The notes: generated by a model not told the origin, from the letters alone. Counted from the first letter of the stretch, positions 1-35,200 are shown. The stretch: 64,000 bases of DNA from Styela clava (GCF_964204865.1 NC_135253.1:14198001-14262000), one strand, 5' to 3'. A program made the numbers and translations.

Positions 1-3000
1 TATTAGCATAACTTTTAGATCTTTCTTGCAACATACATCCAAGTTAATATAAAAAAGAAAATCCTAAATCTTATATCTATATCGTTAAAATATCCTCAAT
101 TGAACAGCGTACTGAATACTTTTTGCTTCCAGTCTTTACTGTGACCCTATAAACGTAAAGAACCAGAAAACTAAATTCTCAATTTCACAATCTCGTGATT
201 TAGATTATTTTTAGGCGTAACAAGGCGTAACAAACCCCGAAGCTATTGTGTGATATTTTCACTTAGCATACACGCGAGAACCGAATAATAATCTGAGTGT
301 GTGACTAATGCTGGCTAAAACATGGCAATCCGTAATAGTTTTATAATATCATGATTTCCAAAAGAAATTGCTCCGCTGAAATTGTTCTACACGAAAAGAC
401 CACAATCTAATAAATTATATTAGATTCATTAGATTTTATTGGAATTTTCCAATAAAATACATTAGGCATATAATTCAGCATATTATGTTAATATTGTCGC
501 AGTATTAAAATAAGATGTCTTTTTTCAATGCCACAGTTAATTAAAAAAATCACTTTAATGTTGTTTGAATGTGGATTCCAACTGTTAAAATTATTTCAAG
601 CTTATTTGAACTCATCAATTCCAAAGTTTGAATAACGCTTTAGTTCTGTCAAGTCAAATTGTATTTTAGCTACATATATAACTAATCCTTAATTTTGACT
701 GAAGGAATTAACCAAATCTTATTTGCAAGTTCACCCAGCCCAAAATATAAATTTGATAAAAACGTTTATTTGTTTAATATTTCTTCCGAAATTCGCAAAT
801 GAAATAACCAACATGATTTAGTAATGAGGTAGTATTTGTGTAGCTGACAACTTCAAACTTGCCCTTAGTTTGTTATTTAATTTTGTATCCGGCTGAATAA
901 CATGTTAGCGAGCTTGGCGATTACTTATTGTAGCTTTTTGAAATTCTTTTTCCACGTTGGAATTTTATCTCCTTAAAATATCACCTCTCTTGTTCTCTTA
1001 GTTTCTTGACGTTTTCTTAGGATTTCATTTTACTTACTAAAAGTCCATCAATGTCAAAGAGTGAGAGCATTGAACGGTAGCACAGCACAAATATTGACTG
1101 CAATAAAATTGTTACTCGATACAAAAGCCGATTTCGTTTTACTGGCCGTAACTGTGCACTTTATACAATTCTCAACATAACAAATATCCCGTCAAGAGCT
1201 ATTAACGTATTGTACTTTTAAAAAATACACAAATTCAACTAAGATAAACAGAAATAAATAGAATATTCTTATTACAGCTTTCTCTGGAAAAATTATCATG
1301 GAACATTTTATCAAAGAATATAATTTTACGAGAGGCTTTTGCTGCGAGCAAGACCTTGGCCAGCAGAGAAGGAGCTAGCTACTATATTTTAAGAGTACGG
1401 GTATCTTTAGGATTCGTTATCAAATATGTTGCATCAGACGTCAGGGATTTGTATTTTATATATTTTTACTTTCGATGTTTTAACTGATCGCAAAGTCTGC
1501 TACAATCAACAGATTCATATGTTGTTTATATTTCATAACTTCAAAAACTATATTACGTTAAAAATCACAGACATAGTTTTGGTTTTTTAAGCAGTAATAT
1601 TCTAAAACAAATAGTGACATGCTTGAAATGCATTGAGTGCACGCACAGTGTGTGACACTACAACACGGACAACTGGATAAAAATTGTTTACCGGGCTGAA
1701 ACTGTACATAAACAAGGCTTCCCTTGTTTTCGAGCATGAATCACATGTAGATAACATACGTAAAAGCAAAAACTGATGATTCAAAAATATGAGTTGCATG
1801 GCTAAGACATTATTGGAGTTAAAAGTCACCAAAAACGATATAAGTACTTTGCATAATAAAATTAAATTCAGGTTTAAGGCCAAACTGCGGCCTATATCTG
1901 GCACAGAATGGTTTCCGATCGGATTACGCAACAATAAATAATAAAAAAAATTGAGTTACCAAAATAAAATCAACTGAAAATTTCAAGTTATACTCAAATA
2001 ATCAGCGCGTTTCCGGTGAACACTGGCAGTCCTAATTAAGTTGGCTTGGCATATTGGACCTCTCTGGTTTAATTCCTATTATAACAGCAATATTTCGAAC
2101 AGACGTCTCCGTAATTTTGTCATATTATTACATTTCTTGTGATTTAAAAATATACTAAGTATCTATGTCCTATGTCCAATCTCTTAACAACAGCCTGTTT
2201 GTCGTCTACATGTATAAATCAAGTCAGAGCCAGTCTTGCAACTTAAAAAAATATATTCATCATGCCAGTTTTTACATACAGGATAATCCTAGGTCTTGAG
2301 TCATTTTGTTTCGGTGACGAGTATATTGCGCCACAATCCCACGAAATGTGGCAATGCAATCCAATTTCTATCATAAAGAGTTGGTATGACTTTTTTTTTT
2401 TGAGAAAAAAATAATACTTCTCACAGTTCGTTTCGTTGTACATGCTTTCTTGGGAATGCGAATGGAAAGGTAAAAGTGTTCACCTTCCATATAGTGCCAT
2501 GGATAAGAAGAAATCTATTTTAAATATATCTTTGAATAAACATTGTCTAATTTTCTGATTATCGCACTGCCGTGCAGACTCACTAATCTTTCCGTAATAA
2601 CGTCTGATTTTTTATAAATCGTTATGTCGATTTCTAAGATGTTTACGTTAACAACACGCACGGCTGTTGAGAACAGTTCTATTTTAAAAGATTATTTTCG
2701 TCGACTGAAACTTAGTGAATGTTAAACCTGCATTAGGACTTATATCGTTTACTAATTGAGTAATCAATATTATAATTCGCTATACTCGATATCATCAATA
2801 ATGATTAAAAATTCGGATCGCCAATAATCAACATTATTGCATCATTTAAATATTAAATGAATCTTGTATCCTTAAAAAAGAAGTTTATCATTTTAAGTTG
2901 TTAAATAAAGTTATCATATGACAAAAGAATTGGCAATGAAATAGAATATTTTTATGAGAGGATTCGAGTAAAATTTGCTCGAAGTCAGACTTTGGACAGC

Positions 3001-6000
3001 AGTCCCATACGCAGAGAGTAAATACGTTAAATGTTCTACTAAAAGACTGAAATGCGCAGAAGAAAGTATTTGAATGCATGCATATGGGGTCATACACTCC
3101 GTGCGGAAATGTAAAGTGATTTATACAGATTGTAAAACTCAATAAGCCTATTGATAGCTGAAAACACTGTTAATAAAATAGTAAATATAAGATGGTTTTT
3201 GAGTCTAACACAATACAATGTACAATTCGTTACAATGCACGAAAGACAAAAACCATTTTGTCATGTCTTGTATTTCAGAATTTAGATATTCGGTGAGTCG
3301 CGTAGGTTCCACGCGGAAAATTTTTACCAGTAAGTCTTCGCTCATTATTATTGAATCCCGTTGAGTAAAAATAATTATGGTTACAATTGTGCGCATTCAA
3401 AACTGTTTAAATTTTAGTCCAGATCTCAAATACCACCAAACTCTATTCCAGATGCATATTTTCAAACCTAACCTTACGATGCTTCGTCTATTTTCACTAT
3501 AAATCGCTTATAGTCAATTTTCAAGTGGGACTTCCCATGCAGAAGTGGTTTCAATACGGACGGATGCGATTAAGCCTATAATAAAGCCCTTTACCCCAAC
3601 AAGATTCGCGTTCTAATTTCCTCTTTGCTACAACAATAGCGTATAACTTGCAATCTAAATTTGCTGCTTAATGACTCGCTGGGCCTTTGACAACAACATG
3701 ACATGCAAAACCGTATGATTATGAGACTGATGGAGGAGCTAAGCACAAGCCAGGTAATTGAACAGGAAGGCATTTGTTTGCGGTTACATATAGGGGAATT
3801 ATGATAGATTCCATCGACGGGTGACACCGTTCAAATAAATGGCAAAATCAGCCTATAAGGAGCTGTTCCTGTTAACTGAAAAATATAGTGGCATACTTCT
3901 AAGAAATAAAAGTTGCAAAATAATGAAAAACAAGCAGTTTACGGCAGCCGTAATTATGTTTATTCATGTTATGACATTTATCTTCTATGTCACATTATAT
4001 AATCATAAATTGAAATAAGTACAAAAGCTGGTCCTGTCCGCCCAAAATATCGGCACGAACAGCATAAACAAGTTTGTATTTATACAGTATTTAACGAGTT
4101 ATCGCAATCACTCGGCATTCACAGGTATGTGTATAAACATATGCTGAAGCTACCTATGATCAGTTTTTTGCAACACAGAGACAAAGACCTAGCCCTCTAA
4201 GAATATTTAGGTTGACTCACAAAGTACATCTAAACTGGAAAACCAAATATCGATGGGGCAAAAGTACATCATGTTCGAATTTACCAAATTAACGTTTGCT
4301 GATTGCTCATCGTAAAAAAGGTACATGCATCTAAAACAATCCACAAAACTATTTACTGTAGTCCTGAATCGGGTCGCATTTCCTGCACTCAATCACACAG
4401 TTTACCCCAAATGCTCGGCTTAGCTTGAAAGCAGCCATTGTGGGAAATTTGAATGATTTGAAAATCTCGAAATCCCTCTTTCCTCGAATATGTACTCTAC
4501 CTTTGTCTCGATTTACATTCAATCCACTATATATTTATATAGACTATGAATGCCATAGAAATTGTACAATATATAAGTTTATTGTTACACAAATTAATAA
4601 TAGAAATAGCTGAGAATAAGCCCGATATAATTGTAGGATTAGGCAAAATTTCAAAAGTAAACTTTTCTACGAAAACAATACAAGTAAAATATTCTCAACA
4701 TAATAAATTTGTTAGTCTATATATGAGCTGAATAAGAAACGACGATAGCGGGCACGGTCCATAGCAAATCTTCTCGTAGGCGAAAGAATTGGTTGAATTT
4801 CAATAAATTTAGACTCGGAAAATCAGCAAGTTATTATTTATTAAATCGAATTAAGACTGTGAAACCAAACCATCGAACTTTCGAGCATAAGCTTATTGCC
4901 TTATAGCCGCAAACAGAAATATCTTTCCTGTCATTTTATTCATACACAATAATTTTTTCCGACCTTAACTTTAAATTATGATACAACTTGTTATTAGAAT
5001 GTTATTGATGAAATTATTATGCAAACCGATAGAAATAACTTCTCGTGGATTTGTCAATTAAGCCCCACTGCTGTATTCAGCACTAAAAATGGAAAATATG
5101 AATTGATTCAGATCTTAGATGGGTACCTAATTGTGTTAGAAATTAGAACAGACTTGCTTTGCAGTATTTATTAAAAGTGCTGAGAAATTCCGTTAATCGA
5201 AGATAAAGTTTGCAGATTTGTGTGAATGGTGCCGTTGTTGCAACTTTGTATGTTGTGAAGATTAGTTCCCTTAATATATATGTTTAGCCTTCAATCGCGT
5301 GAGTGTCGCATCCACGCACGGCATTTTGCGTTTTGTGGGTTCAAATAAAATGGCGTAGTGTTGCTCGTTCAACGTCTAATTCACTCATTCTAAATTTAAA
5401 TTACCGCAGTCGATGAATGCGATGTAACATTTAAATACGTCCCATAAGATTTGAATGGACGCATACGCATTAATATAAATATATACCTAACTATGTACCA
5501 GAAACAGATGCGAGCACGTACGCATTTAAAACCGCTTGTACGTTGAAGATCACAGAACGCGACCTCCTTGACCTGAGTGTGACTTGAACCAGCTGAGGAG
5601 AATTTCGTAGTTGGTGTGAAAATATGAATAAAAGTTTATTTTTAATTCTGTACGAGAGTATTTGGAAAAGTACTCATACTATTAACTAACTCATACTATA
5701 ATTCCAGTAAATGAGCTGCGATTTTATTGTTGTGTACTTCGTGAGTATGAAACGAACTGTGAAATAAAATCTCCGACCGATTACCGAAAATTTACGATTG
5801 ATTTGAAATTGCATCGAATTATGTGGAATTTTACAACAGAACGATAGAGAAATAGCACTAGATAAATATGTCGAAAACGAAATTGTGTCTTCACAGTATA
5901 ATTGAAATATAACTTTGCCTGATAGTTTCAATATATAAACTCACCATTTTAAAAAATGTTCTAATAACGAGAATAAAAACGAGCAAGATGTACGTTCGCT

Positions 6001-8309
6001 GCGAAAATAAGTGCATGGCCACTATTAAAGTTCTATCGCTGAAACTTTAATTGTTTAGCGTTAGCCTATATAGCAGTCTGAACAGTTCCTCATATAAACT
6101 TTCACCACCCTGATACGAAGTCGGCACTATTATTTTTATTTCATCCTAGATTTAAAATGCTTTTTTTCGATACTGATTAACTCAATGTGACATTTCTACA
6201 ATTCGAAAGTTAATTTTCTTGCACGCTTTGTCTTGTACCTGAATACTTACACATTTCTAGATATATCTCAACCATAAATATCATTAACTGGCTTTATCCC
6301 TCCCTATTAATATTTTATATTAAATTATATTGTCGCATCGATTTATTTGACCCGCAAGAAATATATTCTGGAACTTCATTATGCAAAATCAAATGAACAA
6401 TACAATATTATAATTTTCCCAAGGAAATTGCTTTCGTGGAAATTACTGGTCTGATAATATGCCACTTCATTAATAATATCAGGTAAAATGCTATTTAATG
6501 TTACGGGTATAGTAAGTATTAACAATGATAAGCATTTATTTGGAAAAAAAAGTTTTTCCATACCTGCCAGATTTAATCGAAATAATAAATTGTGCAAATG
6601 TACAACAACAGAGCGTTGTTGTGAATGCTGTGTCTGCTTTCGATTTTTAATGTGTGTTTTTTTTCAAAATTTGAATATTTAAAAATCACTGAACAAAATA
6701 TTTTCAAATCAAAAGCATTTTATTGTCTCAAAAGTGTTTTTACACGTTTGATCCGTTAATGACATGATTAATTAGACCATGTCTACCCATCTATTTGGTA
6801 AGAGTTGAACCCGTTTAATGTATATACGGTATACTGTAATCTAAACATCTAAAACTATCTACAAAAGTTACGCTATAATTTCTGAGCACTGTAAAAACTT
6901 ACGGCGGAAGATTCCACATTAGAGGATAAGCAAAGAAAATAATTTCCGATTTGTGCACCACAAAGATTTCTTTCAAATAAACGTCACTCTACCTGTGGGA
7001 AACACTCAAATATTCAACATTCACACGTTGGTCTGATGAGCGTGTACACTGCGTCAATCCCACGCAGACCAATCCGTTTTTTCAATTTGTGGGAGGTCAC
7101 AACACTGATAAGAAATCCGGAAATTACATTGGCTAGCGCGATAAACGCAACAAGGTACCCCCGCATGGACAGTCCGCAACAATCACTTTCCACTAATTAA
7201 TATGTGTATGGAAATCAGTAAAAGATCGGAAAATTCGTACTCTTTTTAGTTAGATATTCGTTGGTCAGGGTATTACTGTATACTACCAACAAATAACGAC
7301 GTTAATACCTGTTTTAATGCCAGTATCTTATATTATAGTATTTGAAACCCGAGCCCTTGCCCTTTGTACGTACTTCATTGATATTTGTTGATGGTAAAAG
7401 TATCGAATATCATCTATTCTAAAGCATATTTTCAAATCTATTTTGGACAGTATGTCATGGAATGACCTAATGGACGTCCAGTTGAACAACTCGGAGAGGA
7501 AAATACAATATATAAATAAATATTCGTCACCAAAGAAAAACTCTTCGCTCCTATGGTTTCCATCCATTGTATAATACGATCACGGAGTTGATCATATTGT
7601 TTCAATGCCTGGTAATATCCTTCGGAATGTCCTTAATAACATTATTGACACATCAAAACGTGACACACAATAAAATTTCGTCAAATCAATTTTTTAAAGT
7701 CAAATTGAGGCGACGCGGTTAAAGAATTTACCATGGTTAAGGTCGACCCACATTCAGATGGCATGGCTATATTATAAAGTCGGCTCAGGTTTTTGCTACG
7801 AATCTCAAAGAGTGGGGTGTGGAACTTCCAGTATTAATATTTCGTTCACAAGAGGGAGGGGAGTAGTGGAGAAAGCTTTCATAATATCTAAAAAAAAAAA
7901 AAAGAGAGCAATGCGAAAAGCCTCATAGCACCAAGTTTGCAGAAAGAACCACGGACAAGCAAAGACGGGGGCGATCGAGCAACAAGGAATAAATAGTGTT
8001 TCTTTTATTATTGACATGCTAATTTAATGCTTCAAATATGTCATAATCCTATTTATATTTTATACAAATACCGTCTTTTTCTCGTACCCCCTTGCGCAGC
8101 GGAGGCCATGGCTACTAGCAAAGGTTCCAATGATCTTCTATGAAAGTACATAAAGGCAATCAAACAAATTTTATGGACAGAAAAGTATTCTGCGACATTA
8201 TAATAGTTTTGACGTACCGATTGACAAATAGAATCTTAAGTGTTTGCTGGGTTCAGAGAGACCTGTCACTGAACGTTGCTAATTATTTGATTTCACATCG
8301 ATGCCGGAA

Positions 8310-8436
8310 TACTGACTGTGTCTCATCATCGCATATAGTCAAAATGCACTTAAGCTTATCCTGAGAGGCATCAATAAATATCAAGAACAATGTAGGCCTA
8401 AGAATAGAACCATGCGGGACTCCAGCATTAATAGAT
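8310..8436 (-). mobile_element. Degenerate non-LTR retrotransposon (LINE) reverse transcriptase fragment
   Basis: The minus strand reads SINAGVPHGSILRPTLFLIFID...ICDD, a decayed GVPQGSILGP-LF-I-IND...YADD signature. No open ORF remains. Confidence 0.7.
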
Positions 8437-8822
8437 CAGGCTTGGGGACTTGGCAAGCAACGTTGACTTGCGACCAGTCGAGAAAGATCTCATGATGGCG
8501 AAAACTTGACCAGATACACCCCACGATTGCTTACTAGTCCAACCCAAACTTATTAATATTCAGAGAAACGGACTTCGTTTCACAGCGGTCATCCACTTAC
8601 ATGTTTTGAGCGCACTTGGTTGGAAATTAGCGGCATTATATCAACGGCAAGGCAATGATCGGGAGCGTTTCATCGGATATGGAGCTAGCACTACATGTGA
8701 CCAGCAGTCTTCGGCGATCGCTTTACTTTGCTTAGAGGTGTGAAAAAAGAACGAATACCAACAGGTTCACAATTGTGTTGTGTTTTATTGCACCGGTTGT
8801 ATATGAAACATGGGTCATAAAA

Positions 8823-11800
8823 TCACAAACATTCGCATGGATTTCCGCATTTATTTTTGTTTTCCCAGAAACGCTTCAAATCATAGGTTGTGTGTTGCGT
8901 TGACACCATCATGTTTGGAAAACAACTATCGTCACATAACCATTGATCGTTCTGAACATAGAAAAGACACATAATAATATAACACACATCCAAGATTACA
9001 GATTGTATTGTACACAGAATAGTATACCTCAAAATGACTCTTCTCAGAAACAACAGCGACCTAGTTTTCGAAAATATGTGGCAAGGATTCTGGGATATAA
9101 GCTATTCCAAATCACACCGTTTTCCCCCTAATCGAATGTATTATAAACGCCGTTCATCAAGGACACGCAGATATATCCGTTTATGGAAATTGAAACCGCT
9201 TGACAACCAGACCAGATGAGGCAAAAATACGAATTTAGTAAAGACATGCCGAGCTCTACGGGAGGGAATGTTGTCTATGATAACATTAGAAATGAAATTA
9301 ACATTTTTCTTAGAAACATTGACAACTACATTATATTCACCTCAACAACCAAGAAATCAAAACTGTTGACAGGAAAGTTCAAATTTTGGAGACAGCAAGA
9401 GCAGCCGAGTCATTTTTATTATTCTTACCTGAATATATTCAACATCTAGAGCAGACATCCATATTCCCATGGATACATCCTCTCCTTGATAAAATTTCAA
9501 GTTTCGACTGTTAATAGCCAAATACTTGGAAATATTCGACGAAATTATGTTGCCAGCACCACATGCATATGCAGGATAAACAGAGGCAGTATATTGATAT
9601 TCAGCCCATTTTCCCCATCTATCAACAATCCAATCCCTGCGAAAATTCCCCAACCATATTCCAAGTCCATAGCGTGGCTCCTCCTCTATTTGTTTAACAA
9701 GCTAAAAACATATTTTTCAATCATTACCCACATTTCAAGAACACGATAACCAAAAGGATAACTATGATGGCATTGTACAATATCGAATTTGGTTTGAGTC
9801 ATGCTCCTGATCAAGTACCCATTAAGCAAGTTTTCGGAACACCTATGATTTGAACTATCCGAATTCACGAATAGCAGATCTTTTTCAACATTGTATGAAA
9901 CGCTATCAATTAGAGTTAGACACTCGCACAGTGATTACTCATATATTCATTATTTTGAGTCATGTATGTTTGGAACTAACAACACACCTTATAAATCTTT
10001 CCAATATCAACATATGAATCATCGTCTGTTTTCATGATAAAATCAGCATTCAAACTTCTTGCCACATACTGATGAAAACTAATAAGTTTCCTTGGAACAT
10101 TCCTATAAGTCTCTATAATATCAGCACCATCAATATCAGGAACGATCAAAATATCATCATGTTCTTGAATCTCTTGCTTTATTTTTTTATCAGTTTCAAA
10201 TATGTGTTGCTGTTTTTCAGAATAAGCAGATTCTTCGTTTTGTACATACTTCCTCAATTGTGTAATATCTGAAATAAGATTGTAATAATACATACGGTAG
10301 ATCAAAATGCAAATAGGATATTTATTGAGAGTTGATAAACCGGTTTTTATTTGTGGTAAATCAAGGTCAATCGTCCAGAATGGGTATGGGAATAGTTATT
10401 TCACTTGTGTCCGAGTAGCATTATTATGAAGACGAAACTGGTCACATCACCATGCGGGGGCGAGGAGTTCAGCGATCCCCTCACAGATGAGTTGACCCAT
10501 GAATTAAACCTGTGAATCTCACTATTAAAAAATTTTTAGGTTTTGCAATCAAATGCTATTTAGTAATGAAAATCCGAACCCCAAATACAATCTGATTAAG
10601 TAGGTAGAAAGAAATTAAGTAATCTTCCTAGATGAGCAATAACTCACCTGCAAATTCTATTATTAAAGATGCAGGCAATATCATATTTTCAAGTGTCACA
10701 GGCAAGATATGAATTGGAAAATCTCCTTTCTTCAGTGAATAACAAATGATCTAAATATGTAAATTTGACATCTAATTTGAATAAAAATAATAAACTGATG
10801 GCTAAAATTGGTTCATAAGATTAGCAATACGCTAAAACATCATAAAGAGTTCCAATCATTGCAGGGTATCAAGAATAAACTTGAAATAGGTTATAGTTAA
10901 CTAAAATTAATGATTCTTCCATCAGCTTATTATTGAATTAAGGAGGACAATGAGTCAAAGATTAAAAACACAATTGAATGAAATTTCATATTCACTGGAG
11001 TGATATGATCAGATGCAAGTAGGAAATACAAGTACAGTATATAACACACTTTAAATTGCAACTAATATTGAATAAATGTTATCTTGATATGTTTCAATAT
11101 TTTAGAGTTATGGATCCATATTGAAATATGCAATTCAAAACTAGGTCTGCATGTTCACTCAAGGTAGTACAACTTACTTAATTATGGGCTGATATAAACA
11201 AACAGCAACAAGCCCATTGAGTTCTCATCAAATAACTTACAGGACTTATCTTTATAGCGGGATGAAACGAATGCCTTTGAAACCAACTCTTCACACCAAC
11301 ACATGATTTTTGCCTATCGCATACAACAACTAAAGATCCAAGAAATCCTTTCGGTAATAAATGAGGGTGGAAACCATATTTGTATATGTTAGATGTATTG
11401 TCACGATGTGGATCTCTTGCTTCAACAACAAGACTCTGTATATATAAAAATTGAGAGAACAAGTTATTGATATTGATTATATAGAACACAGAGAAACATG
11501 TAAAAAATACAGGCAAATAAAATAATGGTTTTCTCAGGTCAAATTTACCATTGTGCAAATAACCATGCAAAGGTATAAATAGAAATATACTTGAAAGTTC
11601 GTAAAAATATTTGTTTCAAATCAAAATTTGGAGCTCATGCTATCGAATGTCACTTGTCCTGATATTTAATATATTTGAAATCAATCTGTGATATGATAAG
11701 GCTTGAACCCAACCTGATTAAGTTATTTTTGTGGGTACAATATTTCCGCTGATTACATGATGCGATGATTAGGCTTATGTTATTCCAAAAAAGTTTTGGT

Positions 11801-14498
11801 TACTCATTTCAGTCAGATATTTTTGCTATTTAAAATTAGCATATGCCTATTGTTATAATATTCTTACATCCGCTGCCAGATTCCATAGTTGTACTATAAC
11901 ATTTTGTCCATTTGTTATAGGTATGGTGATACCAGATAGAATGACATCAAACGCCACTACAAAATCATAGCCCACTGCCACAAAATCCGCTGAATAACTC
12001 TCAACATTTTTGTTATCAACAAAAGCATGGTGGAGGATATCGATTGGACCTTTTTGTTCTGAAATGTAAGAATAAGTAGAAATGAACATAAGCAAGTCTC
12101 AACACGGTAATAACTTCCTACTCTGTAGCAAGTGCACATTACAGCATAAAGTTAAGAGAACAAATTTGACGCAGCTATATTTTTTCGTCAGTAGTCACTC
12201 AAGTTACCGTACACATTTTTAATGGTGTATTAGTATGCATGTATATTTTGTTCAATTTGCATCACACAATTTTGGCTTTTATGGATGGATGGACTACTAA
12301 CTATTTTCATTACATTGCTACACATTTGACTGATAAACAATGTGCTCACCTGGTAGACTTTTTCTTGCTTCTTCACAGGTATAAGCATCATTTCTGTATT
12401 CAACTGGAATATTACAATCCTGGTTTGCCAATATAAATTTCACAAATATGCTGTGTATAAAATAGTATAAAAATAATAAAATAACATACAGAAACAACTA
12501 CGAATGTTAGAAAACATCAAATCTAATGCGATAAATGGTCCATCTCAAATGGCATAACAAGAAGAAAGAAAGATTCTGGCCAAGCAATGTGTATGTCTAG
12601 TGAATCAAAACAGAACATTGCTTTCAAACATTGAATTTGTCCATGGTTGTAAGTACAAAATCGAAACGAAACTACACACAGATATTGTTGCTGTTACTGC
12701 ATATGAAAAGTTTGTAACTATACTCAGTGAAACTGTACTGGAACATATAACATGTGCAATAATATAGTAAAGATGCTTCGAACTCTGACCCCAAACAATT
12801 GCAGGGAGTAACAATAATTTACCACAATTAGCAAAAAGTAGTGCTTGACATATCTTCTTAGCATTGAATACAATTTGTTTAGATGTTGAAAAAAGTAAAA
12901 CTGATGGTAATTTTGGCATCAAAATAACAAGAAGTTTTTGAATAACATAACATAAGAATAACACAATGAATATAAATAAGCTTAGTTCAAGTCCTGATAC
13001 AGTAGTCATGACGTAAAGTTGTAGTTGAGTTGCTGCATGGAATACAACATCTTCAGAATTTGTACTGTTTCTATCATCAATGGTTGCGCTGGGTGCATTT
13101 TTTGATATCCACTTCATATAGCCATCACAAAACAAGCACAAAAAAGCCAATTTCCAGTGTTCATTACCAGTGTCTCGATTACACAATATGTGACGAATGG
13201 CTGCAAGTCGCAGAAGAATTAAATCCAAGAATACGAGAGTGATGTCAAATTCAATATATTTGTCAACAACTTGCTTGCACTTTGTACAATGTTCTATCTT
13301 AAGGATCCCAGTATTAGGGAATGTGGAATACAAATCTTTGCATTGTTCACCGCATTCAATACATGTGAACATATCAAATTAACTGTACAACCTAAAACAA
13401 CAAAATATGTATAAAATATATAACACTCACTCATTGAAAAGCTCTGTATTGCTGACAATGGAGAGCCAAGTTGAACGAATAGTATCTCGCTGAACAAAAT
13501 TTTCCCTGGCAGACAAGATTCCAATTGCCAATTTATACTTGTGCAATTTTGACCATTTCAATGCTGAAATTAGATATATTTTCATAAGCATTTCATCAAA
13601 ACACTTTTAATTATCAGGGTTGGCAACAAGTACACATCTGCAACTTCAGTTGCTGAATTACGCATATTCGAATCTTGTCTGCCAGCTGCTGATCTGGATG
13701 ATCATGTGCAACACAGCAGCAGAGCATTGCATCAGGCAGTCAGGGTTAGCTTCTCCCCACCCATTTACAGATTTATGCATTCAGGGAATTTTGACTGCCT
13801 CATATCTGCAGTATCTGATTGCTGGATTGAGGTATATGGTAAGTTTCGGTGCCTGTATTCAAGTATTTCAGTATTGACAAATTGTACACATGAATAACTT
13901 GTACTGTAGGCCTGTTTCAGTACTGTAGTTGGATAGAATTTTACATATATATTTCTGGCGGTGAGGAGAGCCGATTAGACGCCTTAATCATATGGCGAAC
14001 CACAGCCTCTCAGGGTCACATGTAGTTTCGTACCTAACATACTTCTAGTGGGCGTAGCATAACAATTTTTTCATGTGTCAATCCTAACCCCCAGTCCCCC
14101 ACCAGACTATACCATCCAAAAATTATGTCACTAGTGATGTAATAAAGCCCTTCAAACTATACGAACTGTCATCCAAGATGCGCAGTTGAGTACCCAAAAT
14201 CGAACAGCTATTTCTCTAGTTTTGTTGTCGCGATGATCCCAGCGGACAGCGGTTACGTAAACCACCCATAGTAATAAAGCCCTGTCTCACCTTTTGAGAC
14301 ATATCGGTACTTACATAATTATAACAGTTTAATATACACAGAAAATTTAATATGCATAACACCCTAGCAGGGTACCGGAATGCTGGTATGCTTTTTACCT
14401 ATATTTTTCTAGAAATTGGACTGACCTGGTCGTATGAAAATAGACAATATCGCAGTAGAAACGATGAAGACAAACAGAGCTGCATTTGAAGATCTCAT
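8823..14498 (-). CDS. B3GALNT2: UDP-GalNAc:beta-1,3-N-acetylgalactosaminyltransferase 2 (GT31), 9 coding exons: 14498-14426, 13563-13431, 12450-12350, 12058-11868, 11435-11241, 10750-10648, 10268-9988, 9701-9429, 8951-8823
   Basis: GT-AG junctions are phase-compatible. The N-terminal signal anchor MRSSNAALFVFIVSTAILSIF is followed by IGILSARENFVQRDTIRSTW, IFVKFILANQDCNIPVEYRNDAYTC, LLPKGFLG, KTDDD, YPAYACGAG, QGEDVSMGIW and C-terminal WLC...CGNPCEC, which follow the motif order of vertebrate B3GALNT2. Confidence 0.93.
12605..13372 (-). CDS. ARV1: Protein ARV1 (ER membrane protein; sterol/sphingolipid homeostasis and GPI-anchor biosynthesis), intronless, nested in B3GALNT2 intron 2
   Basis: Intact 255-aa ORF. 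It has an N-terminal Arv1 homology domain (CxxC...CxxC, DKYIEFD, DLIL...AIRHILCN), then LCDGYMKW and several hydrophobic segments. Confidence 0.93.
   Translation of the reverse strand: MFTCIECGEQCKDLYSTFPNTGILKIEHCTKCKQVVDKYIEFDITLVFLDLILLRLAAIRHILCNRDTGNEHWKLAFLCLFCDGYMKWISKNAPSATIDDRNSTNSEDVVFHAATQLQLYVMTTVSGLELSLFIFIVLFLCYVIQKLLVILMPKLPSVLLFSTSKQIVFNAKKICQALLFANCGKLLLLPAIVWGQSSKHLYYIIAHVICSSTVSLSIVTNFSYAVTATISVCSFVSILYLQPWTNSMFESNVLF
13931..14011 (-). mobile_element. 3' fragment of the tRNA-derived SINE family
   Basis: Reverse complement of the SINE tail at about 14900-14983 (gaggc..tggttcgccatatg..taag.cgtct.atcggct..cctc..atatgtaaa..ctatcc). Confidence 0.75.
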
Positions 14499-14640
14499 AA
14501 ATTTGTAAATATAAACTAGTCTGGCACTGCATGAATACCGGTACCGGTACCTGTGTGATACGGTAATAAGTTTACTTATGATGCGCTGATGCTGAGCCTG
14601 AGGTATATGGTCACTTTGCACTTTGCTGAGGTACGAATGC

Positions 14641-14983
14641 GGCGCGGCGGTGTGGCTCAACGGGCTAAGCGTTAGGAATACGCTCGCCACCGCACCTCTA
14701 ATTACTCTGCGTGGGTTCGCAGGTTCGAATCCCATGCAGGGATGGTTATGTGCGAGAGGATTGCTGGACTCCTCGCCGTCGTTGGGTGGTTCACGTAACC
14801 GCTGGTCGGTTACGGCTTCCTCCACCACCAAGTCCATGCTTCCGAAAAACAAACAACACAGTAAAAACTAATCCCATACCCGACTTGGAATGGTAACCGG
14901 ACGAGAGGCCGTGGTTCGCCATATGGATAAGCCGTCTTATCGGCTTTCCTCTCCCCCGGGATAAATATGTAAATCCTATCCTA
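14641..14983 (+). mobile_element. Apparently full-length tRNA-derived SINE (about 340 bp)
   Basis: Pol III A box TGGCTCAACGGG (14653) and B box GGTTCGAATCC (14722), followed by a non-tRNA body and an (atcct)n tail. Related copies or fragments lie at about 10450-10520, 13931-14011, 29956-30378, 53935-53990 and 61495-61740. Confidence 0.88.
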
Positions 14984-18600: not shown

Positions 18601-21600
18601 TATTTTACTATAAATTAATAAGTTGTCATTCAATTTACAGAAAATCGAACAAGATTGAAATAAGTCATTGGGAAAACCCAGCTATTCCTATAAAAGCAAA
18701 GGTAAGCTCGGTCCCTATAGTTGAACAACGCATGCTGATACAGCGACATTCGATATCTTGATGCTGAATCACAGTTTCTAAAATAAAAAATAATTACGCA
18801 TGGAGACTTCCTTAACACTTAAATTTCAAAAAACTCACTATAAATTACAAATTCATCATCCAAATCAGTATTTCTTAACTTGGGTTTGATTAAACCTATG
18901 TGGTTCGGTGAAGCTGTTCCAGGGGTTCGGCGAAGAAACACTTTTCGATTCCAGTATACTTCATGGAAAACTCATATCGCCACATATGTGCTTGGCGACT
19001 TGGGTGTACTTCTCTACTCATCATCTACTGAGTGATGAATGAATATTTCAGTGCAGATCTTTGCTTAAAATTATCATAATTTCTTCTGGACGACTTCATG
19101 ACGCAGAAACACCATTGTGGATCATAATGGCTAGTTCTATGCATACACCACAATGGGCATTTATATAAAATTGCAATAATCGTCTTCTTCTTTATAAAGT
19201 TCAAATTGCGATATTTTAATCGTTCAATACGAATCGTAATATACGACGGATTTCGATGTGAGCTTGCAGAATAGCGCAGGTGTTCGACATGCTCGCGAAG
19301 GTTAAGAACCACTGATCTAAATCGACTTGTTTCGCTTGTCAATCAGCATGATATCGGTGTATAGTTTGGCAATCAGCACAATTAACTAACCTTTTTGTCC
19401 CTACAGTTAACTATCGTTCTTACCACACACGATTATACAAATTATTGTACAGAACTCACTTCAATTATAGTTCTTATTAGATTTCAGATCATCTTGACAA
19501 ACGTACATTTTCATCTTTATTCTCATCATCTGATATTTCCATGAAATTTGATAAAGATATATTTCAAAGACTACAAGTAATTTTTATATATTCATTAGAT
19601 GAATTTCATTGTTGAAAGTAAGTAAACTTGCAATACCCAGATTCGGAACAAAGTCGTGTAAATTCATTTTGGCAGAGGTTTACTCAAACTACTGCCACAA
19701 GTCTGCATTCATAAGCAATAAAACACACCAGCGGTCTGCGAACGAACGTTGGCTCAAGTCAATTGATTGAAATCGAGAACAATGAGATTTCTTACCGGCC
19801 ATAAATGTTGCGCTGTTTCTTTTTAGCTGGGGATGGAATGATATATTTGTCATGCTGTCTATATAGCTGCGATGACATCATTGTCTTGCATCGACACGCG
19901 TCAAACGGCTGAAATCAAATCCTCAACATAGTAACCTCCGTTTATTACATATTACAAAATTTAGTGAAACAATTTTGGCAAGATTTTAAAATACGTATAT
20001 GACATTGTAAAAATTGCTAATCGAATATCACACTAGTATTTGAATTGCCCCTTAATATAAATATGTTGTTAGGTGACAATATTTGTATATTTTCCAGATA
20101 ATCGGACAACTTGACAATAAGTTCATTGTTACACTTTTGTCTCCTGCTAAAACAGGCACAGATGATGAGACAATTACAGATAATGAGAAAAGTACGATTG
20201 TGTTATTCGATCAGCATGCAGTACATGAAAGAATCCGTTTAGAGCGCTTAGAGAAAGGTACTGAATTTGTAACATTTTTATAAACACGATGGTCTAATGT
20301 TCACACACAAAAATATTGGAAAAATAATAAAATAAACGACGATAAGAAAGGATTAATGGAAGCAAAAACCAAATCAATCAAAATAATATAGAAGTTTAAA
20401 ATTAAAATTGGAGAACAAATGAATAAAACTTATTCAAATTTACTTATTCAACTCACATATTTAAATTTTGATTTTTCTTTAAGCTTATTAGATGAACAGT
20501 GAATAATACATTCACTGTTGTGCATGGAGATTTCATAGTAAATGAATTATTTGCATTGTTTTAATTCATTTTGTATGTGGTCGGTATGAGCCAGCATGTT
20601 GCGCCTGACATGTGGTTCCAGTATGAAATAAACTTTAAAAACGTCTAGATATACAAAGCAATGATGGCATAAAATCTGCCACACTGAAGAATGAAATATC
20701 GATACACATGAGGGAAAGCGAATGCACACTCATGGAAGCCTGGAAAAATAAATTTGCTAAAATTGGCTTACAATATCGGACAGAAGACAACAGAGACAGT
20801 AAGCATCAGTTATTAAAATTTCTACGCGGGAATTATATAGAGTGTCTCACTGACTCTACCACAAATTCAAATTCAGTCTATCTTTATTCATTTTTTTTTA
20901 TTTATATCTCTAATGCTCATATTCAATTCATTGATCTCATCTCTCAAAAAATTGAATTGAGCTTGCAGAAGAAGCGTTTAGTTGTGTTGGAATGAACTTT
21001 CAATATTCTCTGACTGGGTATGATATGTAAAACTACAATTCACTACATTCGTTATATAAGTTTGCAATTTTATGTTAGTAACAATTACCACACCATTACT
21101 TTACGATCGAGGAAGTACGAAAATACTCATTTTTACACGTGGCCGTTTGCTGTACCGAGTAAAAAGATTTACACTAAAAAACGGAGAGTACGTATAAATT
21201 TATACGCAATAGGCCCTTCTCAGCGTTTGGTATTCGTATTGGGAAATAATGAACACAAACGAGAGAAACTGATATACATCACTAGCGTTAAAATAGGGAA
21301 AAACTAAAAACTGATGTTCTGATTTTGTTCTCTTATAAAAGATAAAAAAGATATGAAACAAGAAAATATTTGATTAAAGAAACGTATCTCAAACAAACAT
21401 GTGTAAGTTATTACCAACTCGTAACAAGTATCGAAATAAAACATCATTATAGCATTTTTTTTAAAGAATATGGTGTTCATTCAATTATAGGTTTCTGAAT
21501 AAAATCTGACGTTGGCTAGTCTACCATATTTTAATACTATCATGGCAAATATACGACGGAGCATTAAATTATTATGTTTGTACTGAAACAAAATACTATT

Positions 21601-24600
21601 CTATATCTTGAAAATTTTGCACAGCAATAATTACACTGTATGTAGACCAGCTTTGATCTATAAATGATGTCGCGATATGTATGAGTTATAGAGAAAAGGT
21701 TTTTACAAAATAATTTTACATTGTACATTCCAAAACATTGTTATCTGGAAGATGTACCGATAATAACTTTTTAATAGGAAATTCCAACCGACAGAGATTG
21801 TTTGGATAGGTTTTCTGTAGCCCTGGCCCACTTGGTGTTTTAGATTTTTTGTTACAGATTTTGGTCGGAAAACAGATTAGGCTCTCTTCTTATTTGTTAC
21901 TAAAGCAGATATTATCAATCGCACTATACTTGATGAGTAAGTCTATTCGATGGTGTAAGCTTAAATTTTGCCCTGGTTTGACTTTATTTTATTCTTTGTA
22001 CACAATGTCAACAATATATGACATATATGTAAATCTTGACAAACTGTACTTCAATGCATTATGCAATAAGGGTTACATTACATCAAAATTGAATGATTTT
22101 CAAATCGTGTCAACGATTAGGAGTATGATGTGCGAAAAGTGTTGCATATGAGGTAGTGGATGCTATTAAAATGTAAAAATATTTAAAATAATTCGTTTGC
22201 TCATAAGGCACATAAACGTACAAATAGGACCAACCGTGAATAAATTGACTTTTATTCATTTTGTTTTAACTGTATACCGTCCGGACAATAATGTTTAAAA
22301 TTTGTCGTATTCATACATTGCCAAATCTATATCATACATACTCAGTAGATGTGCTATCTTATCAGGGTGCAACGTTTTATAATATTTGTTCAAAAGAGTC
22401 GGCGAAGTCGTCCTCTCTTTTTCATGGAGCCATTTTTCCAAGTAAAGACCTGTTGCGTTGTGAATAACGGCAAGATCCTCAGGAAGCGTTTCCAATTTTC
22501 CTATGAAATCATACCTTATGAAGCAAGGATGACATAGTTTATGATATTGTTTCCAATGAGTGTTATAATGCTTCATCCTATACCCAGGGTCTGTTAGCGT
22601 ATCTACAAATTTACTAAAAGAAATTGTATTTTTGTTATTAGGTCCCTCCGTTTTAACTCGCATAATAACTTCTTTTTCGTGATAATAATTCCCTTCATAA
22701 TCCACAGAGTGTTTAGTAGATGGTATCCATTCTATTTCACGATTTTCCAGCTTATTTCTGTAGGCAGATAGTAATCGTTCAAATGGATGACGCACAAACA
22801 TAAACTTGAAATAATTTTTCAGTCTATAATCTTGTTCTTCCGGGGTGTAGTATCGCAAATCTGGAAGAAGTCTTTTTGCGTGTACGTCTCGTATGTTTGA
22901 AGAACCATTGACCTTAATCTTGAGGTCGTCAATGAAGACTCGTTTCCAGTTGCTGCTCGCAACCTGAATTCAAAGAATGACGCGATTTAAAAAAAGGATA
23001 TCAATAATGGTATAATCGATTAATAATTTGCGATTTTTAAACAAGAGAGCGATGGACACGTAGACCAAAACGAAGTAGTACAGGTATATTGTCACAGTAG
23101 ACCACCGATACTGCAGTCTTCGCCTGACCACTAACGCGAAACCACCACAAGGTGCTTAATTTTGATGAGGGTATCGCAAACAAAAAAATCCTATAGAGTC
23201 CACAAACACTTTTGAAATAAATAAAAGTAATAAGTTAATAATCTCCGATCAAAAACTCGTTACGTTAGATGTCATTGGCTCTTGTACAGAGCCTTGTTCG
23301 AAGCGGAAGGCGTAATAAGCGTCGTATGAAAATTTGATACATTCATTTCGCAACTTTGATAAAAGGAATTAAAGAATGTATTGCTAATCAGAAACCCTTT
23401 ATTAAAGTTAAACTCCGCTTTTCACGGTAAGTCACATTCGTCCCTGCTAAAACGTTCGAAAGTTTTTCCGATTCCAGTGAAATATTCTGCTAGAATGTCT
23501 CAACGAGAAGGGCCCAATTTTATAGTTGAGCATCTAGAAATCTAGTTTTTTTTGTTTCCTAACAGTGTGCGTATAGACTATTAAAGGCTTCGGGACGTTG
23601 CATTTTACATTTAATGAATAATATTCTCAATCGATCGTGCAAAACACAAGCCCCAATTTAGCATATCACGTTTCAGTATTACCAAATAGAATAGTAACCT
23701 CATAGAACGTGATAGAGGGGGCTAATAATTTTATGCAACCTTTCATATGATTGAAATTTATAGACCAAACAAAATGAAAATTAATCTAAGTATCTTGGCG
23801 AATAATTTTGTAAAGTGGGTTATGACGTCATGGAAATTTACTGCTTATATGACGCTATGCATCGTGTTTGGCAACTGCGGCAACTTATCTTTTACATTTG
23901 TTTGTTTTATTGTTCTTGCAAAATTAAACGCGAATTTGTTTTCGTATTTTTGCAATTATTATTGAAAAAAATGTGAACTCGAAAAGGTATGATTTGTTGA
24001 AAAAAACAAATGCACAAACAAAAGTTTGATTAGCGTTGTGGGGAAGTTAGTTACCAGTGCGTGGTAAACAACTCTTCGCGCCTTGAACATTTGAAAACAT
24101 AACCATCTTGAAATATTTCACTGTACTTTAAAACGAACAAAAGCATTTATATTCGAAATAAATTAAAGTATGAGTCAAAAATACTGTGTTTAATTTTTTT
24201 TTCTCAAAAAAAAAAAAAAACTTTTTCGAATTATTGAGGGGAGGGATCTACAATTTAAATCCAATCACTGTGTATAACATCTGAAATCATATCGCTTGTA
24301 AAAACATATGTGAGAGAGAAAACATTGGCCTAATCCTTTCAAATATACAACATCGCTATGTGTTTGTTTACATCTGCATACATGCTGCAGTATCAATCGA
24401 ATTCATCTGCAACTTCACGCACAAACCGCTTCATCACAGCAATGAAAGGAAATCGTTATAATCAAGTAACTTTTGCTGCAAAGTAGTATTGCAATTTACT
24501 TTTAGCTAAATTTCCCAATAAGTCTTACCATTACTATTTGAAATGGCGTTGCTGCCTTTTGTTAAATTTGCAAGATCGTATTGCATGTAAATTATCAGCA

Positions 24601-27600
24601 CCAGGAAATAGAAACATGGCTCGGAGTTTCGTTAGAACTCAGCTAAAAAAGTGCGGCATTGACTGCATATGTTCAAAATATGAGCAAACCGAATTTGGTA
24701 TAAATCGTATAAAACTATATGTGATTATATGTAAATTATCTTTCAACTAAGTTTTTAACGAAGCTGAATTTTTTACAACCCAGATATTGAACCATTGTGG
24801 TTAAAATCAAATATCCCTAATATTTATAACAATATGTATTCAATTTAAAAAAAAAAAGTTTAACCTTCGGAATGTCGCAGAACAGTATCCTTCTTTCGTC
24901 ATCCACGATCATATGCGGAATAGCATCTTTCCTACTTTTGAGTTTCAGCTCTTCATCATATTTTTCACATTCTCTTTCAATTGTCTTTAAACGACTTTTT
25001 TGTTCAGCTGATAATTCTAATTTTGCATTGAAAGTTCTCGATTCCTCTTTTGTATTTCCAACTGTTGATGTAGTAATCCAGACCAGTTTACAAGTTTGGC
25101 AAAGCGCCACAAAGGCAATTATATAGCAAAGATAAGTCCCTCTAGATTCTGCCATTTTCAAACTGACGGTATCGCATTTGCAATCGCCTTTTCATTGTCT
25201 TTTTCGATATAAATGCTACCTCAATGATAACTCGACACGAAATGCCTGTCTTTAATTCAGTTTATTATTTTATATGCGAATCTATCTTAGCGTTGTGATG
25301 CTGCTCCATTTAGCGTGCTTGGGTATGACATAAACTGTCGTGATGGTTGTCGGCTGTTGTGACAAATTACTTTGTTTTTTTCTTCTGTTGCTGTAAGTTT
25401 GAACTGTAAAAAATGCGACAATTTAATTGTAATTTCTTGTCGTAGCATTTTATATTTCACCGCGAGTCTGTATCAACCAAATATAACAAGAAGTTCAACA
25501 CCCATTGAAATTATTCTAGTGCTGACGATGACAACAAAAGAAGGTTTTGAAAATAAAAATACATAAGAATATTAGTGGATTTACCGCATTGTTTCGACAG
25601 TTAGCTAACAATATTTGCCTGTTAGAACTAACCGCGCAACTCCTAAAGTCCCAAACCGCAAGATTGCGAATTTGCTAAACAACCATATTAATCAAATTGC
25701 CTGCGAATTGATTGTTTCCCAGTAATCCTAACCACGAGGCGTTGAGCGGTGCACACTGGTTTATATTGTAACTCGCGACTTTCCTCACTTGTCATCCAGG
25801 GGAGATAAATGATCTATTTCCTGAACTATGGAACAGTGGCAGTTCGACTGTGCCGCATGAGAGCGAGTTGCGCCGTCATTTTTTATTGATAAATATGATA
25901 ACTACGTGTGCATAACAACATTTCTTTATAATATCCATCAATAATAACTACAATGTTTGTGAGACCAGTGACGGCTCCACTGGTCAATAGTCATTCTCTC
26001 AGAATCTTTTATTAGGATTGGCGTATACGGTGTGAACAAAATGAACCTGATATACTGCGTAACGATTGAGCGACATTGCATTCGAGTAAACAACTGTTTA
26101 TACCAGAATTACATCCCAAAAAAGGGGAAAAGTATCAGTCATTTTAAGCCAGACTTTTGAATAAATCCACTTGTTTTTCTGACTGAACACGATATATTCC
26201 ATGTTCACGCAACATATAAAATCGTAATGTAATTCACAACTCTACAATTCAGACATGTTTCAAGGGCTAAGATATTGTTTAAACTCAATGAGTGGTTGAG
26301 TATATTATGCAAAAATAATATCACTAATTTGTTTACTACTCGACGAAACTAGAGAAAAATTGTTAGAGCAGAAGGCATGAAATTACACGTCATTTACCGG
26401 TCTCCAATCTTCGCAGAGATACAGACATTGGGCATTCTACCGAATACGCATGTAACCATTTGTAAAAATTATCATTTCGATATTTATTTCCGTTTGCAAG
26501 GTTTATGACTCATTATGTTGCTCCCAATTGGCAGAAATGACATTTGTCCGAGGCCTTCAAAAAAGTGCGTTTTGGTATTAATTACGACTCTTACGTAATT
26601 AACGGTATTTCGATAGATTTTGTTTGACCACAATATAGTATATAATTTGTATATTAAAACTTCTCCAAAGCGATGTCATAGATAGTCATCCCAAAGTAAA
26701 AGAAGCCGATTTTACAATAGTCACGAATGACCTACAAAGAAATTGTATATTTCAATGTCATTTAATTTAGTTGCGTCTATAATGCCCGTTGACTCGAGAG
26801 TTTCAGTCACTTTTGTAACATTACATACTTTTGTATAATACAAGAATGTGTTATATATCCTAAAAGTTTGTAAAGTATGCATCGTTTCACTGTGAATACT
26901 TGTATTGAATAAATAAATGACTTTTTGTCTGTACGTCGTGAACCACGTCACTGATTCCATACAAAATTATATTTCTTCATCCCTACTGTAGATTTCTTGT
27001 TCCGTTGGTTCTGGTTGTAAGTTGCACGAATATCGTACCACGTTCACCCTTCAAGTTTATGTTCACCATAGAACTACAATCCTCCGTGCTTTATGACGAA
27101 TTTCATTGTTCGCTTTTGAATTTTTTCGTCTTAATATTACTTTTAAGGCAAACGGCAACGATCAATTAAATATGGGAATTTTTTCTGATTCAGACAGTGA
27201 AAATCTGCTTGGTATTATATCATGCTGTCAATTTCAGTCATTTACAATAATTTAAGTCAAGTTTAGACCTCAAAACCCAATGATGTGAAACCCGCTGTTG
27301 GCTGAAGTTTCGATTGTGGATGTACTGTGATATTGTGAACTAATATATATTATAATGACTACCTTATACCTGATAATTATTACAACTGGAGGAAGTAATC
27401 CAGTTAGCTCATACGAGAAGTATTATTTTCATTTTTTATATTTCATAGACACAGTACTTCGTATTACGGCAGTACCTGCGCCCCTGCTTACCAAAGTAGA
27501 GAGGTTCCACAAAGAAAATGAAAAGCAAGCAGAACTTTCTATTACGATACAGCGTCTCATCCGAGAACAACTCCAGGTTGGGATAATAAAGCAGTTTGAT

Positions 27601-33455: not shown

Positions 33456-33825
33456 TATTCGATAAATGATTGACTATATTCCCAAGCCGTGGCGAGCGCA
33501 GTCGCGTCTTTGCAAGACACTTCAATGGACGTCGCGCCTCCAAAACAAAGTGATTGATGCTAACTAAGCACGAAACGTACTGCATTACGGACCACAAGGC
33601 GCACGTTAAATCCACTTTCCCCAAAATTGATCGTGCGCCTTATAGGCAGATACGGTTAATGTATGGGTAAGGTAGTGCTTTAGTTTAGACCAGTGGTTTT
33701 CAACATTTTTTTCAAGCAATTTAAATTTTTTTGAAAATCAATTTTGTAAGGACATGCTCAAATACTAGTACTTTTATGGTTCAAATTTAACTATCATTTT
33801 TACATAACATTTATTATCCCATAAA

Positions 33826-35200
33826 TTACCCCAAAGTGAGGAAGCAGCGCTTGTTTGCCATCAGCGATTTTTTGAAATGGTGGTGTGACTTTAAATTGCT
33901 TTGTTTAAAGTTTAAGCATAAATATACTCTGCATTTGGTACATCTGATTACCGGCATACGATCACGCCCTGGGCAACGACATCGCTGTCTCTTAGCTTCT
34001 ACCACAGACCAATGACCAGTGGCGTCGGTTCGAACCTCGTTGTTGGGGTGTGAAGTAACTGCGCTTCTGATTCGGGATTCTGGTAAGGTAGTAGACAATG
34101 GTCTGCCTCGTTAAGTGGAGTCGATGTTTTCCCAGGCTTGCAATGAGGTTCTGTCAAAAAACTTCGAAACGACAAAAGATCTCGTTGCTTGTTACTCGCA
34201 ACTCCCAGGGACTCCCAATCTCTTCTATATAGGATCCAGCTGTTTACAATAGCCAAATCAACCAGGTGGAAGATGATCTTCAGGCAGTACTTTTTTGACT
34301 GAATGCGTATATTATAGTAGGGTATAAGAGCATCCAACAGGAAAACGAACTGGCAATAGTTACACTTCGTTTATCATGCCATTTCATAACTCTTATTTCA
34401 GTGCCCTCAACACATGACGTATTTTCCTCATAACATCCCGGTCCTCTTTTTTCAAATTCTTGTCAGATACCAGCTCGCATTCAAATAACCGGTTTTGTCC
34501 CGCCTTCCCAATAAAATAGATCTTCCTTTTGGCAAGAACGGACATCGAATGTATGGACGTAAACCAATTGTCAAAACAGAATAAATGTGACTATGTTGGC
34601 ACTAACTCGGAGATCAGGGTAACCAGACACAGGATGTATCTTTCCAGTAGATATTTCAAAGTTGTGCATCAAACCATCTCTTCCACACAACAAATATATT
34701 TTACACCCCCATTTGTGAGGCTTTTTGGGAAGATATTGTTTCAGCCCTGTCTTTCCAGTAAACGAAACCATTTGCTCGTCGATACATAAAACTTGTTCTT
34801 GATGTAGTGGTTGAATTTTGCTTTAAGAATTTCTAACGTGGGTCTGATTTTGAACAATCGATCTTGACGAACATCAGAATCGCTATGAAGTAAATCGTTG
34901 TTATTGAAATGGGGCATCTTTTTTGTTCTTTTCCATCGATCACGGGCCATTGCATCGGCGACACAGTTAACTTTGGTTTCCGCAGCCCAGCCCAAAACAT
35001 ACGTGTTCTTGGTAGACAAAAAATAGACACGCAAACGACAGCCAAGAAACTTCTCCATGTCTGGAATTGTAAGGTTTAGCTGTTTGGAAGGATCGCTTTG
35101 GCTCGCATAGATATTAGTTTCCGCAACTATTTGATGCATTTACACCCGAGTCAAAAAATATGTAAAATATGCAATAGGTGGTCGCACTGTTTCCGATTCA
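33826..35200 (-). pseudogene. Decayed piggyBac transposase (PGBD2/3-like, DDE_Tnp_1_7)
   Basis: Frameshifted segments DRLFKIRP, DEQMVSFTGKTGLKQYLPKKPHKWG, KIIFHLVDLAIVNSWILY and Cys-rich RCRCP...RCTKCRVYLCL. The YNxxMGGVD region is missing and TIRs were not resolved. Confidence 0.9.

Follow-up and report, generated by a model that had tools for sequence, protein, structure and literature searches.

An intronless ARV1 gene tightly nested in an intron of a B3GALNT2-like gene of Styela clava, possibly released by spliced-leader trans-splicing

Intron 2 of a B3GALNT2-like gene of the ascidian Styela clava harbors, on the same strand, the only ARV1 gene that we found in this genome, as an intronless reading frame in a block that leaves just 39 nt to the host exon on either side. 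This nesting is real and unusually tight; how ARV1 is expressed from it is what we infer. The explanation that we favor, with slightly less than even confidence, is that the ARV1 mRNA is freed from a transcript shared with the host by spliced-leader (SL) trans-splicing at the AG upstream of ARV1. A more far-reaching version, in which the locus is an intron-nested operon with an acceptor 39 nt from the host donor reserved for the leader, so that the transcript of one shared promoter becomes either B3GALNT2 or ARV1 in a sample-dependent and regulable ratio, we consider somewhat unlikely.

Anatomy of the locus and origin of the nested gene

The analyzed window is a stretch of 64,000 nt (GCF_964204865.1, NC_135253.1:14198001-14262000), and all coordinates are positions within it. 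The features of the locus are given below together with their support; P0010 is the RefSeq protein of the host, and X1, X5 and X6 are sequencing runs that behave as RNA (see the next section).

14426..14498, minus strand: host exon 1, coding part, with the ATG at 14498 and a signal-anchor (match to the N terminus of P0010; joint 14426>13563 in X1, X5 and X6)
13431..13563, minus strand: host exon 2, 133 nt, ending in phase 2 (joints and P0010 model)
12451..13430, minus strand: host intron 2, 980 nt, GT..AG, containing ARV1 (the join of NTELFND to IFVKF is identical in P0010)
13392..13430, minus strand: upstream stub, 39 nt, GTGAGT...TTTTAG, comprising the host donor, a U-rich tract and the AG at 13393-13392; predicted SL acceptor (sequence, acceptor score)
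13383..13384, minus strand: further AG, at a distance of 48 nt from the host donor, that may act as a satellite acceptor (sequence)
12605..13372, minus strand: ARV1 reading frame, 255 codons, intronless, ATG at 13372, stop at 12605 (Pfam PF04161)
13201..13202, minus strand: cryptic cis acceptor in ARV1 codon 57/58 (joint 13431>13200, GT..AG, in X5 and X6)
12451..12604, minus strand: ARV1 3' UTR region, 154 nt (bridged unspliced in X1, X5 and X6)
12489..12451, minus strand: downstream stub, 39 nt, GTATGT...ACACAG, comprising the polypyrimidine tract and acceptor of the host (sequence)
12350..12450, minus strand: host exon 3 (joint 12350>12058 in X1, X5 and X6; P0010)
8838..12058, minus strand: host exons 4-9, galactosyltransferase domain (PF01762; RNA joints), individually 12058-11868, 11435-11241, 10750-10648, 10268-9988, 9701-9429 and 8951 to a stop near 8838

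The initial annotation had described two 39-nt GT..AG stubs on the minus strand, at 13430-13392 and 12489-12451. Both are present in the sequence, and they are the two ends of host intron 2, flanking the nested ARV1. The host was identified as a B3GALNT2-like galactosyltransferase by Pfam and protein matches of the surrounding exons. Its model, built from RNA joints, agreed with P0010 at 347 of the first 363 residues and was identical across the exon 2/3 join, so 13430-12451 constitutes a single 980-nt intron. The ARV1 block (13391-12490, 902 nt) occupies 92% of this intron and carries a conserved reading frame of its own, which lies entirely within the intron and on the strand of the host.

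The nested reading frame matched the Pfam family Arv1 (PF04161) with an E value of 1.4e-32 and was 99% identical to XP_039249294.1, an ARV1-like protein of S. clava; five further relatives among 626 candidates aligned over their full length at 52-57% identity. Searches of the S. clava genome (G000) returned this locus as the one match by protein and the one match by family, with four of four candidates scored each time. These searches, which short exons could escape, revealed no intron-bearing parent copy. A metagenome scan recovered ARV1 in 1 of 225 stretches (L002), with no ascidian context. This ARV1 bears GT-AG introns after residues 29 and ~69, i.e., at two places within the first 87 residues, and from this one relative it follows that the intronless copy in the window has lost introns. 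No direct repeat flanking the block was found among 20 of 24 repeat families, and the longest A run past the ARV1 stop is 2, so that neither a target-site duplication nor a poly(A) remnant was detected; such marks would be expected to decay in an old insertion. Retroposition of ARV1 with loss of the parent is plausible, although no marks of it remain. In human, ARV1 and B3GALNT2 are within a few Mb of each other on chromosome 1q42, which would suggest old linkage rather than random insertion. From the ARV1 stop through the end of exon 3, AATAAA and ATTAAA are absent.

Two ARV1 relatives deserve mention. Residues 1-23 of P0005 look like an N-terminal read-through (..CCVFLQ..FD followed by M) resembling the in-frame translation of the window stub (..FCCFR..FD followed by M), which hints that a similar U-rich acceptor may lie upstream of ARV1 in another species. 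P0009 is a full-length relative on a contig of 15,058 bases that may reveal the gene context in another species.

The host lies head to head with MLH3, 15 exons of which were mapped from P0011 (15637-29220, plus strand), and the two ATGs are 1139 nt apart. A high-copy repeat occupies ~14640-14983 between the two genes, and a phage search with the repeat upstream of the host gave no match, which is uninformative. In the 5' UTR of the host, an AG precedes a GTACCG tandem repeat (14552-14536, minus strand), where 6 bases are absent in X5 and X6; we regard this AG, at 14552-14551 upstream of host exon 1, as a candidate leader acceptor of the host. Elsewhere, the window contains a sulfotransferase reading frame (PF03567; 22298-22969, minus strand) antisense within MLH3 intron 12 (20799-27448), sulfotransferase exons (PF17784; 29660-31560, minus strand), a relic of a DDE_Tnp_1_7 transposase (33800-35140, minus strand) and IBR-domain exons (58250-59490, minus strand).

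Joints and reading frames of the RNAs

All 15 available runs consisted of contigs and none was recorded as RNA; X1 to X9 were presumed to be RNA. Four runs were aligned to the locus: X1, X5 and X6, from three studies, and X10, which is DNA. GT..AG joints at the host introns occurred in X1, X5 and X6 and were lacking in X10, so the former three behave as RNA. The results below refer to the joints listed for these runs, and contigs lose rare forms.

Position 12490 was bridged unspliced in all three RNA-type runs. In X5 and X6, position 13391 and the whole upstream stub were covered unspliced as well, by contigs spanning 13171-13460, which hold 30 letters in exon 2, one below the bridging threshold. 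The same two runs, from two studies, displayed an unpredicted joint, 13431>13200, with 29-30 letters on the short side, that was seen in neither X1 nor X10. Exon 2 is thus joined to the tenth AG, 230 nt from the donor, and not to the AGs at 39 or 48 nt. An 18-nt in-frame micro-exon at 13200-13183 was rejected as an explanation, since the contigs with this joint extend 29-30 letters, beyond 13182. In X6, one contig extends from 13200 across exon 3 (to 12350), of which it covers 101 letters, and continues into spliced exons 4-6. The transcript is therefore not confined to the intron: contigs reach exon 3 (X6) and exon 2 (X5 and X6). Contigs joined across intron 1 in three of three runs, with no branch into intron 1 at 13563, so that spliced exons 1-2 are linked to the read-through RNA.

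The four cis joints that would make a cassette of the block (13431>13391, 14426>13391, 12490>12450 and 12490>12058), as the initial annotation had envisaged, were all missing among the joints listed; rare cis use may persist. The normal joint 13431>12450 was not among the listed joints either. We deduced it in X1 from contig edges and bin arithmetic: ahead of 13431, one contig carries 30 letters that have no placement, and assigning these to 12421-12450 brings the bin to 11.97 against a reported 12, compared to 10.26 otherwise. The same arithmetic yielded no 13431>12450 joint in X6, where contigs cannot prove absence, and in X5 both flanking bins held unexplained depth (6248 and 2628 depth-bases) that unlisted canonical joints would fit.

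Translation of the alternative RNAs gave an early stop in every cis route. Retention of intron 2 ends the host frame at 69 codons, through an in-frame TGA in the upstream stub; the joint 13431>13391 would lead to a stop at 72 codons, ahead of the ARV1 ATG; a joint of exon 1 to 13391 would stop at 56 codons, out of frame with ARV1; and 13431>13200 leaves a truncated host frame of 75 codons and removes the first 57 codons of ARV1. B3GALNT2 thus cannot be made from an RNA in which any part of the block remains. A normally spliced RNA has, in turn, lost ARV1, and, judged from these frames, either-or expression per molecule is real; it follows from the nesting itself and requires no cassette mechanism. 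The retained form carries five ATGs upstream of ARV1, one of which overlaps the ARV1 start out of frame for 46 codons, compared to none in an RNA starting at 13391. With or without the 39-nt stub, the reading frames of the host and ARV1 coincide (13563-13372, minus strand), and two stop codons alone keep the B3GALNT2 membrane anchor from being fused to ARV1.

Splice sites, intron size and the spliced leader

The intron sample comprised 62 introns from seven genes and was not genome-wide: 14 from MLH3, 8 from the host and 40 from five ENPP paralogues. The ENPP introns were mapped with P0029 at shared positions with an allowed minimum of 20 nt, and 2 of 42 (673 and 596 nt, at nonshared edge positions) were dropped. 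The window itself contains two recent tandem ENPP-like genes (PF01663; ~37.7-43 kb and 45-51.4 kb, plus strand) with 8 shared intron positions; used alone, these two paralogues were rejected as a source of intron sizes because they are too alike. A close copy of P0030 was absent from G000. The shortest intron measured 62 nt, none of the 62 fell below 60 nt, and the short class spanned 62-79 nt. Among the 14 MLH3 introns are those of 71, 75, 77 and 79 nt, as reported by the initial annotation, whose concern about the length of the 39-nt stubs holds against this 62-nt minimum. A published minimum intron size for ascidians was not found in the literature searched. On the upstream side, the steric condition is thus present: the spacing between donor and AG is 39 nt, and exon 2 uses an AG 230 nt away.

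Splice sites were scored with a matrix built from 21 introns. The AG at 13392 was the top-scoring AG of intron 2 (6.8 bits versus 4.7 for the host AG). Other high-scoring AGs of the intron lie at 12697 (6.5) and 12733 (4.8), and the cryptic AG that is used reached only 2.7, so a high acceptor score is no proof of use. The AG at 13393-13392 sits 19 nt ahead of the ARV1 ATG, as expected of an SL operon, in which an acceptor AG just precedes the downstream ATG. The GTATGT donor of the downstream stub (12489) scored 1.0, below 20 of 21 real donors; the real host donor scored 0.4, so the donor matrix is weak and does not rule out the stub donor. GTRNGT occurs 1.45 times per kb, and the 154-nt 3' UTR would contain one or more with a probability of 0.20. 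Of 17 other introns longer than 120 nt, 4 had the motif within 60 nt of their 3' end; host intron 6 has a GTATGT 27 nt from its end. The downstream GTATGT is therefore at chance level, which bears out an earlier suggestion that it may be a chance occurrence. An exact length match of 39 to 39 nt has a chance of ~0.0015 at one given position, which was chosen post hoc. Shuffled sequences resemble each other as much as the two stubs do, 56-67% of shuffles scoring as high.

In G000, an array of SL-like RNA genes was identified on C4 (L013/L014, 23.29-23.48 Mb), with 41 exact matches compared to 0 in the control. Its units comprise a leader-like end (TTAAG followed by GTAAG), a hairpin and a U-rich site and are candidate SL genes by anatomy only, so that on this count the genome would contain what an SL operon needs. 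Three leader-like variants occur in the array; after one of them, GC and foreign sequence often take the place of GT. Rfam gave no match in the window, L013 or L014, and the exact Ciona SL pattern was absent from G000. Another array, on C3 (L011/L012, 24.85-24.96 Mb), which shows 2 mismatches to the Ciona SL pattern, was rejected because it has no GT and borders on a tRNA-like motif; it does not display SL anatomy. Its tandem units contain the Ciona leader with one change and a non-GT end, upstream of this motif.

In ascidians, operons are resolved by SL trans-splicing (PMC1488885, PMC2760879), and the upstream genes of Ciona operons are described as mostly lacking AATAAA (PMC1488885). In Ciona, trans-splicing is reported to be possible with a donor upstream, to be higher behind weak donors and to favor the first acceptor of a transcript, with a second promoter being possible (PMC11155486). 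The upstream stub is too short and its AG strong, a leader RNA would have no distance limit, and ascidians use SL; taken together, these points favor leader addition at 13391 or 13382. The AG at 13392 would be too near the host donor for cis splicing and usable by a leader RNA only. Leader addition would then compete with the normal cis splicing of one pre-mRNA, for which we propose three fates. Splicing of 13431 to 12450 would give B3GALNT2, with ARV1 lost in the excised lariat; leader addition at 13391 (or 13382) would yield an ARV1 mRNA without upstream ATGs, host exons 1-2 being discarded; and retention or use of the cryptic AG is predicted to produce dead-end RNA. The 3' end of ARV1 would be located near or beyond the exon 3 acceptor, and some RNA would continue through spliced host exons. 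No leader was seen on ARV1 RNA among the contig ends listed (contigs only). The X1 contig of ARV1 ends at 13383, 8 nt inside the AG, with 13384-13430 uncovered, and the X1 contig of the host ends at 14543, 7 nt inside another AG. That these are leader ends is suggestive, from one study. What X5 and X6 show directly is read-through, which is equally compatible with retention.

Alternative explanations and comparison with known systems

ARV1 might instead have a promoter of its own, its RNA starting in the stub or in exon 2 or intron 1 of the host and receiving a leader at 13391 or not, and interfere with the host as in Mcts2/H13. Such promoters are usual for same-strand nested retrogenes (PMC13309782), putative Ciona promoters overlap trans-splice acceptors (PMC4691747), and single versus two promoters is a choice that PMC11155486 leaves open for Ciona; a start inside exon 2 would yield the same read-through contigs. 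We nevertheless judge this reading unlikely, as contigs join across intron 1 in all three runs without a branch at 13563 and as the host donor is only 58 nt from the ARV1 ATG, so that the promoter would have to be located in a coding exon or in intron 1. Translation of ARV1 from a bicistronic mRNA with retained intron 2, by reinitiation or leaky scanning after the truncated host frame of 69 codons, has the advantage that an RNA of this shape was directly seen (the stub to exon 2 in X5 and X6; 13200-12350 followed by spliced exons 4-6 in X6), and dicistronic mRNAs are common in Drosophila (PMC4528330). Against it stand the five upstream ATGs, including the one that overlaps the ARV1 start, and the strong AG at 13392 would then have no function. 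With the ARV1 stop above six exon junctions, such an RNA might moreover be prone to decay, should the usual rule apply in ascidians. This explanation is quite unlikely in our view.

The initial annotation had proposed that stubs too short to excise impose mutually exclusive splicing, in which the ARV1 block joins exon 1 or an SL upstream and exon 4 or later downstream, via 13391 and 12490. Both stubs do fall below the 62-nt minimum, and lengths that agree exactly would rarely occur at one given position. The steric argument agrees with what the upstream stub shows. The downstream GTATGT is ordinary, given how common GTRNGT is near intron ends, and was not seen in use. The contigs argue against a cassette: exon 2 joins the block (13431>13200 in X5 and X6), 12490 is bridged unspliced in X1, X5 and X6 and 13391 in X5 and X6, and X6 runs continuously from 13200 to 12350, unspliced into exon 3, rather than to exon 4 or later. 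Of the predicted upstream partners, the SL at 13391 remains our best guess, while exon 1 would be out of frame; cis use of the block as such a cassette is very improbable. Hardly more credible is that the stubs are genuine 39-nt micro-introns, or duplicated halves of an ancestral short intron split by an ARV1 retrocopy, as the same annotation had alternatively offered. A retro-origin is plausible from the introns of the L002 homologue, and each stub is 13 codons long. However, no sampled intron is under 60 nt, contigs pass the stubs unspliced, and removal of the upstream stub would lead to the stop at 72 codons before the ARV1 ATG; the split-intron version fails on the resemblance of the stubs, which shuffles equal, on the lack of a flanking repeat among the 20 families listed and on the longest A run of 2.

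If the leader step is true, the locus constitutes a compact natural test bed for the choice between cis and trans splicing at one acceptor, and a longer stub in place of the 39-nt one should convert trans to cis splicing. Changes in stub length were not listed in any of the four runs; in X5, the upstream stub has 3 substitutions. The locus would also show that a conserved single-copy gene can survive inside a coding intron of another gene, and it would serve as a warning that, in such cases, RNA common to host and nested gene enters counts and knock-downs. Should ARV1 simply be driven by a promoter of its own, the nesting is tight but otherwise ordinary.

Judged by title or abstract opening, the literature searched held nothing on ARV1/B3GALNT2 nesting or on a coding intron that houses a gene resolved by a leader, and neither gene was named in the searched supplements, in which the Ciona tables use gene ids. 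Exons 2 and 3 of alpha-tropomyosin are sterically mutually exclusive, and the likeness is a splice site too near its neighbor for joining. Here, however, there is no equivalent pair of frame-keeping cassettes. The single 902-nt block has its own start and stop, it occurs in one RNA with its supposed alternatives (13431>13200; X6 12350-13200), and the constraint acts on the upstream side only. In the unusual or alternative operons of Caenorhabditis elegans, as Morton and Blumenthal reportedly described in 2011, one promoter likewise serves two genes via the choice of trans-splice site, as we propose for this locus.

Same-strand nesting as such is known, with 75 human pairs; it is under-represented and not flagged as exceptional by FlyBase (PMC2330155, PMC4528330). 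The usual case is a small gene in a large intron, whereas here 39 nt remain to each exon and the RNA extends into host exon 3. H13/Mcts2 likewise involves a nested retrogene-type gene whose expression accompanies loss of full-length host RNA; Mcts2, however, is transcribed from an intragenic promoter, and its effect comes about through transcriptional interference and intronic polyadenylation (PMC13309782), whereas ARV1 fills 92% of its intron and a separate promoter is not evident.

The SL operons of Ciona share with this locus unrelated genes on one strand, a downstream cistron that starts at an AG and an inner 3' end without AATAAA (PMC1488885, PMC2760879). Single-exon genes are enriched in them (PMC1488885, PMC2760879), and the authors suggest that one molecule may give only one of the two mRNAs (PMC1488885). 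Those operons consist of whole tandem genes, the first of which is complete and directly adjoins the next. The S. clava locus differs in that the downstream gene is enclosed by an intron of the upstream one. Only host exons 1-2 precede it, so that the RNA thrown away would comprise two coding exons, and trans-splicing would have a competitor in the cis splicing that removes the entire intron. By its layout, the arrangement would thus work like an operon, but not like a tandem one.
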